Source of the DNA: Escherichia coli
GTDB lineage: Bacteria; Pseudomonadota; Gammaproteobacteria; Enterobacterales; Enterobacteriaceae
Length of the DNA: 64,000 bases
Direction: 5' to 3' (one strand)
Assembly: GCF_016026235.1 (NCBI RefSeq)
Contig: NZ_CP065613.1
Part shown: piece by piece, positions 42,001 through 45,000 of the stretch
Layout: each line of letters opens with the position of its first letter
Position numbering within the stretch: position 1 is the stretch's first letter
Position numbers: made by a program

Positions 42001-45000
42001 CGCTACATGGTGGTCTACCTGCTGATTTGCGCCGGGATGGCGGTGCTGTTCCTGCGTACACCGACCTCTTTCTTACCAGAAGAGGATCAGGGGGTATTTA
42101 TGACCACCGCGCAGTTACCTTCCGGTGCCACCATGGTTAACACCACGAAAGTGCTGCAACAGGTGACGGATTATTATCTTACAAAAGAGAAAGATAATGT
42201 TCAGTCGGTGTTTACCGTTGGCGGCTTTGGCTTCAGCGGCCAGGGGCAAAACAACGGCCTGGCGTTTATCAGTCTCAAGCCGTGGTCTGAACGTGTCGGT
42301 GAGGAAAACTCGGTTACCGCGATCATTCAGCGGGCAATGATTGCGTTAAGCAGTATCAATAAAGCCGTCGTCTTCCCGTTCAACTTACCCGCGGTGGCTG
42401 AACTGGGTACCGCGTCAGGTTTTGATATGGAACTGCTGGACAACGGTAACCTGGGGCACGAAAAACTAACCCAGGCACGAAACGAGCTGTTATCACTGGC
42501 AGCGCAATCGCCTGACCAGGTCACCGGGGTACGCCCGAACGGCCTGGAAGATACGCCGATGTTCAAAGTGAACGTCAACGCCGCGAAAGCTGAGGCAATG
42601 GGTGTGGCGCTGTCTGATATCAACCAGACAATTTCCACCGCCTTCGGCAGCAGCTACGTGAACGACTTCCTCAACCAGGGGCGGGTGAAAAAAGTGTATG
42701 TCCAGGCAGGCACGCCGTTCCGTATGTTGCCGGATAACATCAACCAATGGTATGTACGCAACGCCTCTGGCACGATGGCACCGATTTCTGCCTACTCGTC
42801 TACCGAATGGACCTATGGTTCACCGCGATTGGAACGCTACAACGGCATCCCGTCAATGGAGATTTTAGGTGAAGCGGCGGCCGGGAAAAGTACCGGTGAC
42901 GCTATGAAATTTATGGCAGACCTGGTCGCTAAACTTCCGGCAGGCGTCGGCTACTCATGGACCGGACTGTCGTATCAGGAAGCGTTATCCTCAAACCAGG
43001 CTCCTGCACTGTATGCCATTTCACTGGTCGTGGTGTTCCTCGCCCTCGCCGCACTCTATGAGAGCTGGTCAATTCCGTTCTCGGTGATGTTGGTTGTTCC
43101 GTTAGGCGTCGTTGGCGCATTACTGGCCACCGATCTGCGCGGCTTAAGTAATGACGTCTACTTCCAGGTTGGTTTGCTGACCACCATCGGGCTTTCCGCC
43201 AAGAACGCCATCCTGATTGTCGAATTTGCCGTTGAGATGATGCAGAAAGAAGGGAAAACGCCGATAGAGGCAATCATCGAAGCGGCGCGGATGCGTTTAC
43301 GCCCAATCCTGATGACCTCTCTGGCCTTTATTCTCGGCGTGCTGCCGCTGGTTATCAGTCATGGTGCCGGTTCTGGCGCGCAAAACGCGGTAGGTACCGG
43401 CGTGATGGGCGGGATGTTTGCCGCAACAGTGCTGGCAATTTACTTCGTTCCGGTCTTTTTCGTTGTAGTGGAACATCTCTTTGCCCGCTTTAAAAAAGCG
43501 TAACGTGTAAATGAGAGTAAGGTTGAACGTGAAGGTTCAGCCTTACTCTTTCCTGCTAACCATTCACCACTCAACAACCAGCTAACCGTCAGGAATACCA
43601 GGCTTAGTACACAGCACTGAAAGTAGAAACCACTCCAGCCATTCGTCATCAATTTGAACAGCACAATACTGACCCACATTCCCGTAATTGTATGAATTGT
43701 CAGCTTAATAATCCCAAACATGCCGAGTCTTTTCCTCCTGAAAATACCTATACCGCCTGGCAAACTGCGAAAGAGAACTAGCCGGTAGCCCGGCAGAAAT
43801 CATCAGGGAAGAGTTTCACATGAAGCAGGTGTGAGATCCTGACCAATATTCAAATGCAAAATATGTCAGGAAAAGGTACCTGGCGAATGTTGCGCAAACT
43901 GATGTGGCGTTACACCATAATATTGTCGAAATGTGTTTATAAAGTACGACGTACTGCTATAGCCACATTTTTCTGCAATAGTATGCAGAGGAATTTGACG
44001 TAACTCGAGTAATCGTCTGGCCATCGACATCCTGGAGGCGAGTAATATTTTACTGAAACAGGTATTTTCATCCTGCAACTTTTTTTTGATGAGACTCTCG
44101 CTGGTATACATTCTTTCCGCGATATCGCGCAGATACCAACGTTTGGCGATATCAAAGCTAATAAGGCGTTCAACTTTTCCTGAAACAGTGCTGATGCTAT
44201 TGAAAAGTAAGGGGATCAGTTCTTTCTTATGAGAAAACATCGATAAACAGGAAAGGTAGAGCATATTGCTCAGTATCGGTGAATTTACCCCGGATTCATT
44301 GAAGCTATCAAAAATCGCCGTCACCAGCGGCATGGGGGGTGACTGGTTAATTAATAGACGGTCTTTGCTATGTAACCCTAAATTGCGTGGTAGCTGACGA
44401 ATATTTTGTAAGTAATGGCAAACTGTCAGCTCATCGATATCCAGTCGTCGCGTATCCGGTGAACAAAACGCAAAATCGTCTGCCAAATTTTTCTCCAGCA
44501 GCACGATACTCTCGTTATGCAGCGATATTTTATGCTGTTCATGATAAATATCGAATGAACGACGAATGAGGATCACCGAGCAGACATGAGTCATGATTAT
44601 CCCTTATATTTCATACTGCGATTATTTCAATTTCAGTATACTAATGAAATGTTGCCAGACTGTTTCTTAGCGCAAAAACTGCCAGATTTGGTAGGACCAA
44701 AATTTATCCACAAAGTAGTTTTGCATAACAGTTAATTGATAATAAGTAAATGCAGCACGAATATATTTTCGCACAGCGTATAGCTTATGTTTATAAAAAA
44801 ATGGCTGATCTTATTTCCAGTAAAAGTTATATTTAACTTACTGAGAGCACAAAGTTTCCCGTGCCAACAGGGAGTGTTATAACGGTTTATTAGTCTGGAG
44901 ACGGCAGACTATCCTCTTCCCGGTCCCCTATGCCGGGTTTTTTTTATGTCTGAGTAAAATTCTATAATCTTATTCCTTCCGCAGAACGGTCAGTGCCGTA

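Follow-up and report, generated by a model that had tools for sequence, protein, structure and literature searches.

A K-12-type gadY gene facing the gadX stop codon in a chu-carrying Escherichia coli genome

Introduction

Pairing of an antisense RNA with its target can end in cutting of the target within the paired region. This has been described for lambda OOP/cII-O, Sok/hok, IstR/tisB and OrzO/zorO, where the cut is made partly by RNase III and residual cleavage is seen in rnc mutants (PMC3919570), and the small RNA GadY of E. coli resembles these systems on both counts. PMC3919570 and PMC10783499, citing Opdyke 2004 and 2011, describe for K-12 a processing of the gadX-gadW mRNA that depends on GadY and in part on RNase III, and PMC3919570 adds that GadY-directed cleavage in the paired region persists in an rnc mutant, which suggests a second double-strand nuclease. 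The outcome of pairing differs, however: OOP, Sok, IstR and OrzO repress their targets, whereas GadY raises the levels of the processed gadX and gadW mRNAs. Unlike these four RNAs, GadY also binds Hfq, and it pairs with a 3′ UTR or intercistronic region where they pair at a 5′ region. When GadY is blocked, gadX mRNA falls by about 75–80% and cells are sensitised to pH 2.5 (PMC10783499). The mechanism is described further in PMC11300174 and PMC10057817.

The acid fitness island itself holds another RNA of this kind. ArrS is, like GadY, a cis-antisense sRNA whose target is the mRNA encoding an acid-resistance regulator, but it is antisense to the gadE 5′ UTR rather than to a 3′ UTR, and its sequence is unrelated. 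The island also has a long form, in which the chu heme-uptake locus lies between dctR and yhiD, as it does in EDL933 (PMC9144400); this form has been reported for O157:H7 and O145:H28 (PMC9144400) and for E. albertii (PMC5799925). It has been argued from E. albertii that chu may have come with the island and then been cleanly lost in lineages such as K-12 (PMC5799925). Here we compare the gadX-gadY-gadW locus of an E. coli genome with the long island form (assembly GCF_016026235.1, contig NZ_CP065613.1) with that of K-12. The locus lies in a stretch of 64,000 nt, all of which was analysed and which we call the window.

Results

Identity of the gadY gene

An Rfam cmscan of the whole window placed the GadY family (RF00122) at 44837–44950 on the plus strand, with a score of 150 bits against a gathering threshold of 45 (E = 8.3e-32); the match spans model positions 1–114 of 114 and carries the consensus base at every one. 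Alignment of the syntenic block puts K-12 gadY (b4452) at 44840–44945 (+) with 0 mismatches in 106 positions, so that the gene has the same 106 nt as the RefSeq K-12 entry, which is the longest reported form. The original prediction of a GadY sequence on the plus strand therefore holds, its start at 44840 being the exact K-12 +1, and the alignment to K-12 gadY reveals no divergence.

The surroundings of the gene are likewise those of K-12. In the MG1655 annotation (NC_000913.3), gadY occupies 3664864–3664969 and gadX 3664986–3665810, and gadW, gadY and gadX have the same order and orientation as in the window. The 370 nt that run from the start of gadW to the stop of gadX align without a gap and with two differing bases. 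Both fall in the 367-nt gadW–gadX intergenic region, at 44652 and 44960, and both are outside GadY and its core promoter. The first (T here, A in K-12) lies 188 nt 5′ of the GadY start and is the only change in the 245 nt upstream of the gene; the second (T here, C in K-12) lies in the spacer, with the gadX stop codon two bases away. A 165-nt segment holding the core promoter, GadY and the gadX stop codon was found in 5412/5426 complete E. coli genomes, with at least 99% identity in 5223. The NCBI pipeline annotation of matching E. coli genomes contains no gadY, with only gadX listed under the matches.

Promoter, terminator and spacing

Dependence of the GadY promoter on sigma-S is established in K-12. 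Work by Tramonti in 2008 is said to have placed a 42-bp GadX/GadW site at the gadY-gadW promoters. In the window, the −10 hexamer TATATT, read from the sequence, lies at 44828–44833 (+), 6 nt 5′ of the +1, and is unchanged with respect to K-12. A simple sigma-70 scan did not report the GadY promoter, because the −35 region is weak; for a sigma-S promoter with such a −35 the miss is expected, and it is no evidence against the promoter. AppY binds the gadY promoter, where its motif ATGSCWGM overlaps the −35 region (PMC10057817), and a match to this motif, ATGGCTGA, is found at the corresponding place (44801–44808, +), again as in K-12. We also considered loss of the promoter, which can be set aside: the 245 nt upstream hold a single change, and it spares both the −10 hexamer and the AppY motif.

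At its other end the gene closes with an intrinsic terminator (44919–44945, +), recognised alike by the terminator scan, the Rfam structure and the predicted fold. It consists of the hairpin CCCGGTCCCCTATGCCGGG at 44919–44937, with a GC-rich stem of 6 bp and a loop of 7 nt, followed by eight T residues at 44938–44945. In 44400–45200 the scan found no other terminator-like site on either strand. The last T is separated from the gadX stop codon (TAG, or CTA in plus-strand letters; 44962–44964, minus strand, from the ORF list and the sequence) by a spacer of 16 nt (44946–44961), the same length as in K-12, with the substitution at 44960 as its one difference. GadY had been predicted to end about 17 nt before the gadX stop codon, which agrees with the 16 nt measured here, or 17 nt if the 105-nt form of GadY is used; the predicted end of the feature, 44964, is the last base of that stop codon.

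The minimum-free-energy fold of GadY has three stem-loops followed by a U tail, and agrees with the Rfam consensus structure: a composite 5′ hairpin (44840–44886, +), a second stem-loop (44891–44911, +) and the terminator hairpin (44919–44937). The energy of this fold is no better than that of shuffled sequences (z = −0.73; −1.06 for the complementary strand), and no compensatory changes were found in GadY, where the only two substitutions seen, in E. whittamii and Escherichia sp. E1V33, each break a pair. Since neither energy nor covariation distinguishes it, the secondary structure rests on the curated Rfam model. Opdyke in 2004 reportedly described GadY forms of about 105, 90 and 59 nt with a common 3′ end.

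Predicted antisense pairing with the gadX-gadW transcript

The three genes are arranged with gadW at 43866–44594 (−), GadY at 44840–44945 (+) and gadX at 44962–45786 (−), such that the 3′ end of GadY faces the gadX stop codon. The cis target is the gadX 3′ UTR, or gadX-gadW intercistronic RNA (44595–44961, −), of which the segment 44840–44945 is the exact complement of GadY; complementarity is perfect because GadY is encoded on the strand opposite gadX-gadW. The predicted energy of the duplex is −219 kcal/mol, compared with −48 for shuffled GadY. On the minus strand no terminator-like site was detected in 44400–45200, including the interval between gadX and gadW, and the hairpin complementary to the GadY terminator has no U tail, both of which fit read-through from gadX into gadW. 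The prediction that GadY pairs with the gadX 3′ UTR, in the arrangement known to drive processing of the gadX-gadW mRNA, is thus borne out in its complementarity and its convergence with gadX; the processing itself is known from K-12, as described in PMC3919570 and PMC10783499.

With gene, promoter, terminator, spacing and target all matching those of K-12, we infer that the K-12 mechanism applies here. Under this model, gadY would be transcribed from its own promoter toward gadX and would stop at the intrinsic terminator 16 nt before the gadX stop codon. In stationary phase or in acid, GadY would accumulate and pair with the gadX 3′ UTR within the gadX-gadW transcript, and RNase III, together with one or more further nucleases, would cut the duplex inside the paired region. 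The gadX and gadW pieces so released would then reach levels above that of the full-length mRNA, and more GadX would raise expression of gadA and gadBC, the genes of glutamate-dependent acid resistance. It is from experiments in K-12 that expression, sigma-S control, Hfq binding, cleavage and an effect on acid resistance would be expected in this strain.

Conservation across Escherichia and a possible role in trans

When species-representative genomes were scanned for an exact GadY pattern, five Escherichia loci were recovered, along with six chance matches that are unrelated; E. albertii, E. fergusonii, E. marmotae and E. ruysiae yielded no match. All five Escherichia loci contain a full-length Rfam GadY (123–150 bits). 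Retrieval by an exact pattern biases the sample toward conserved copies; outside that pattern GadY identity is still 82/84. Among these pattern-retrieved loci, GadY matches the window at 98.1% of positions in both E. whittamii and Escherichia sp. E1V33, and at 99.1% in E. coli E69. For these three loci identity to the window is 74–78% for gadX, 76–86% for gadW, 72–82% for the upstream intergenic region and 25–50% for the 16-nt spacer. Across the Escherichia lineages retrieved by the pattern, GadY stands at 98–100% against 74–92% for gadX and gadW, the gadX figure for MOD1-EC7003 being unreliable because its contig ends within the gene, and the spacer ranges over 25–94%.

The contrast between GadY and its neighbours is the one mildly unexpected result. 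Pairing with gadX-gadW alone does not account for it, because the complementarity of a cis-antisense pair survives any mutation; as pairing is kept whatever changes, the constraint would have to come from the GadY fold, the Hfq site, targets in trans or signals for processing. It is conceivable, if rather unlikely, that the sequence is held by a function not yet described, such as conserved trans targets or a recognition signal for the second nuclease that cuts the duplex.

A related possibility is that GadY is selected mainly as an Hfq-binding sRNA acting in trans, for instance on sdiA or on biofilm genes, and that its antisense effect on gadX-gadW is secondary. Such selection would explain why the GadY sequence is nearly frozen even though the cis pair stays complementary regardless. 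It also accords with the identity of 98–100% for GadY against 74–92% for gadX/gadW and 25–81% for the adjacent 16-nt spacer, and trans roles have been published, in sdiA regulation and conjugation (PMC11300174) and in biofilm (PMC10057817). We nevertheless regard it as improbable. The experimentally established effect is the one in cis on gadX-gadW (PMC3919570, PMC10783499), conservation could equally arise from the fold of GadY, its terminator and Hfq site or from signals in the gadX-gadW RNA, and the retrieval of the compared loci by an exact GadY pattern favours conserved copies. Nor was GadY predicted to pair with the translation-initiation regions of 15 chu and island genes any better than shuffled controls. 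That comparison also disposes of a separate candidate, a GadY trans pairing that would link chu to acid regulation: none of the duplexes with these 15 initiation regions beats shuffled GadY (|z| ≤ 1.1). The cis-antisense reading of the locus remains the preferred one.

The acid fitness island and its regulators

Over the 13.75 kb from yhiD to ccp (35226–48975), window and K-12 are collinear and 99.08% identical, the order of gadW, gadY, gadX and gadA included, and the single indel is of 1 nt, in the gadA–ccp intergenic region. Twelve protein-coding genes of the island (slp, dctR, yhiD, hdeB, hdeA, hdeD, gadE, mdtE, mdtF, gadW, gadX and gadA) have the K-12 length and no internal stops, with 0–4 substitutions each. 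The proteins of yhiD, hdeB, hdeA, hdeD and gadE have the K-12 sequence, and the remaining genes carry one substitution (mdtE, gadA, slp and dctR), two (gadW), three (mdtF) or four (gadX).

Both regulators beside gadY are intact. GadX, an AraC-family acid-resistance regulator (44962–45786, −; 274 aa), was identified from the ORF list and from gadX in matching genomes and differs from K-12 by F53L, V79I, R246G and S248P. GadW, the second AraC-family regulator (43866–44594, −; 242 aa; ORF list), differs by Q21H and L31V. The changes R246G and S248P sit in the C-terminal tail of GadX, and nowhere in the island are differences from K-12 as dense as in gadX, with 18 changes in 825 nt. In GadA the change is G322D (46592 region). 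Two further sRNA genes are present: arrS, antisense to the gadE leader (37961–38030, −), without a difference from K-12, and gadF, 3′ of gadE (38968–39058), with one K-12 mismatch and an Rfam ES205 match at 38987–39058.

The original prediction took the presence of GadY as confirmation that the acid-resistance circuitry is intact in this strain. Part of this stands, in that all 12 island genes are full length and arrS and gadF are present. As a statement about the whole circuit it overreaches, because rpoS, hfq, rnc, gadBC and the upstream regulators lie elsewhere and because function does not follow from an intact sequence; one sRNA gene alone does not confirm that the circuitry is intact. 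K-12 maps place rpoS, hfq, rnc, gadBC, evgAS and ydeO outside the 64,000-nt window.

Mutations in rpoS are frequent in natural E. coli isolates. One may therefore ask whether gadY is intact here but inactive owing to a defect in RpoS, Hfq or RNase III, whose genes lie outside the window, in which case the locus would be silent on whether acid resistance works. That none of rpoS, hfq, rnc, gadBC, evgAS and ydeO falls in the window leaves room for such a defect, but a decaying pathway would look different from one in which 12 protein genes, arrS and gadF are all intact, and neither GadY nor its −10 hexamer nor the AppY motif has changed. We hold this to be very unlikely, and continue to read the locus as a gadY gene that would act as in K-12.

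The chu locus

The chu heme-uptake locus (chuS, chuA, chuT, chuW, chuX, chuY, chuU and an ATPase gene) occupies 26169–35225, between dctR and yhiD. At 9.6 kb from GadY, it breaks into no gene, and this long form of the island occurs in 2234/5426 complete E. coli genomes (41%). The circuitry had been described as intact "despite the chu insertion", a framing that we do not retain: chu is distant, breaks nothing, is carried by many E. coli genomes and may be ancestral (PMC5799925, PMC9144400). As chu may have arrived together with the island, insertion is one of two possible polarities.

The chu locus also contains the shuA/chuA 5′ UTR thermoregulator, at 29285–29316 (−). Its chuT (330 aa) and chuW (445 aa) are open in the window, while the annotation of FDAARGOS_943, the closest genome, has them frameshifted and with an internal stop.

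Other differences from K-12 in the window

Elsewhere, collinearity with K-12 stops after kdgK, where an accessory segment begins (60296–64000) that encodes a DUF3142-domain protein (60397–61602, 401 aa) and a tetratricopeptide-repeat protein (61589–63631, 680 aa). At least 80% of this segment is covered in only 30/5426 complete E. coli genomes, among them SMS-3-5 and FDAARGOS_943. Beside the dinQ toxin gene, K-12 has agrA and agrB in tandem and the window a single AgrB-type repeat (20433–20549; Rfam AgrB at 20452–20535), which aligns to both K-12 copies. The IS5 that splits yhiS in K-12 (K-12 3652036–3653230) is missing from the yhiS region of the window (about 24186–24190); the yhiS counterpart in FDAARGOS_943 is annotated as frameshifted. 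About 150 nt between K-12 pitA and uspB (12181–12330 of the K-12 extract) are absent from the window at 11745, and an inverted, 87%-identical copy of this pitA–uspB segment is found at 56075–56203. The segment is probably a small repeated intergenic element.

Discussion

The closest described counterpart of this locus is K-12 GadY itself (b4452; RF00122), with which it shares the 106-nt sequence, the −10 hexamer, the terminator, the 16-nt gap to the gadX stop codon and the gadW and gadX neighbours. There is no difference inside the gene, and upstream the two are the same except for one base at −188. The differences lie outside gadY: the spacer base at 44960, four amino-acid changes in GadX and two in GadW, and, 9.6 kb away, the chu heme locus, which K-12 lacks. 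Identity with K-12 of the gadY gene, its promoter, terminator, spacing and target, and the intactness of the neighbouring genes, are directly seen.

We consider it almost certain that 44840–44945 (+) is the E. coli gadY gene, with its own promoter and an intrinsic terminator that leaves 16 nt before the gadX stop codon, and that it would act on gadX-gadW by the antisense mechanism of K-12. A chance or degenerate resemblance, or a gadY pseudogene or remnant, is rejected on the full-length Rfam match (E = 8e-32), the 106/106 identity to K-12 and the intact promoter and terminator.

As such, the GadY locus is an already known and ordinary feature; the finding matters little beyond correct annotation and touches no open question. 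Marking 44840–44945 as gadY is useful because the NCBI pipeline omits the gene in matching E. coli genomes, and it establishes the presence of the standard K-12-type gadX-gadY-gadW module in this strain, which carries chu. The sole point of wider interest is the strong conservation of GadY beside fast-evolving neighbours, which could be used to seek the constraint behind it.
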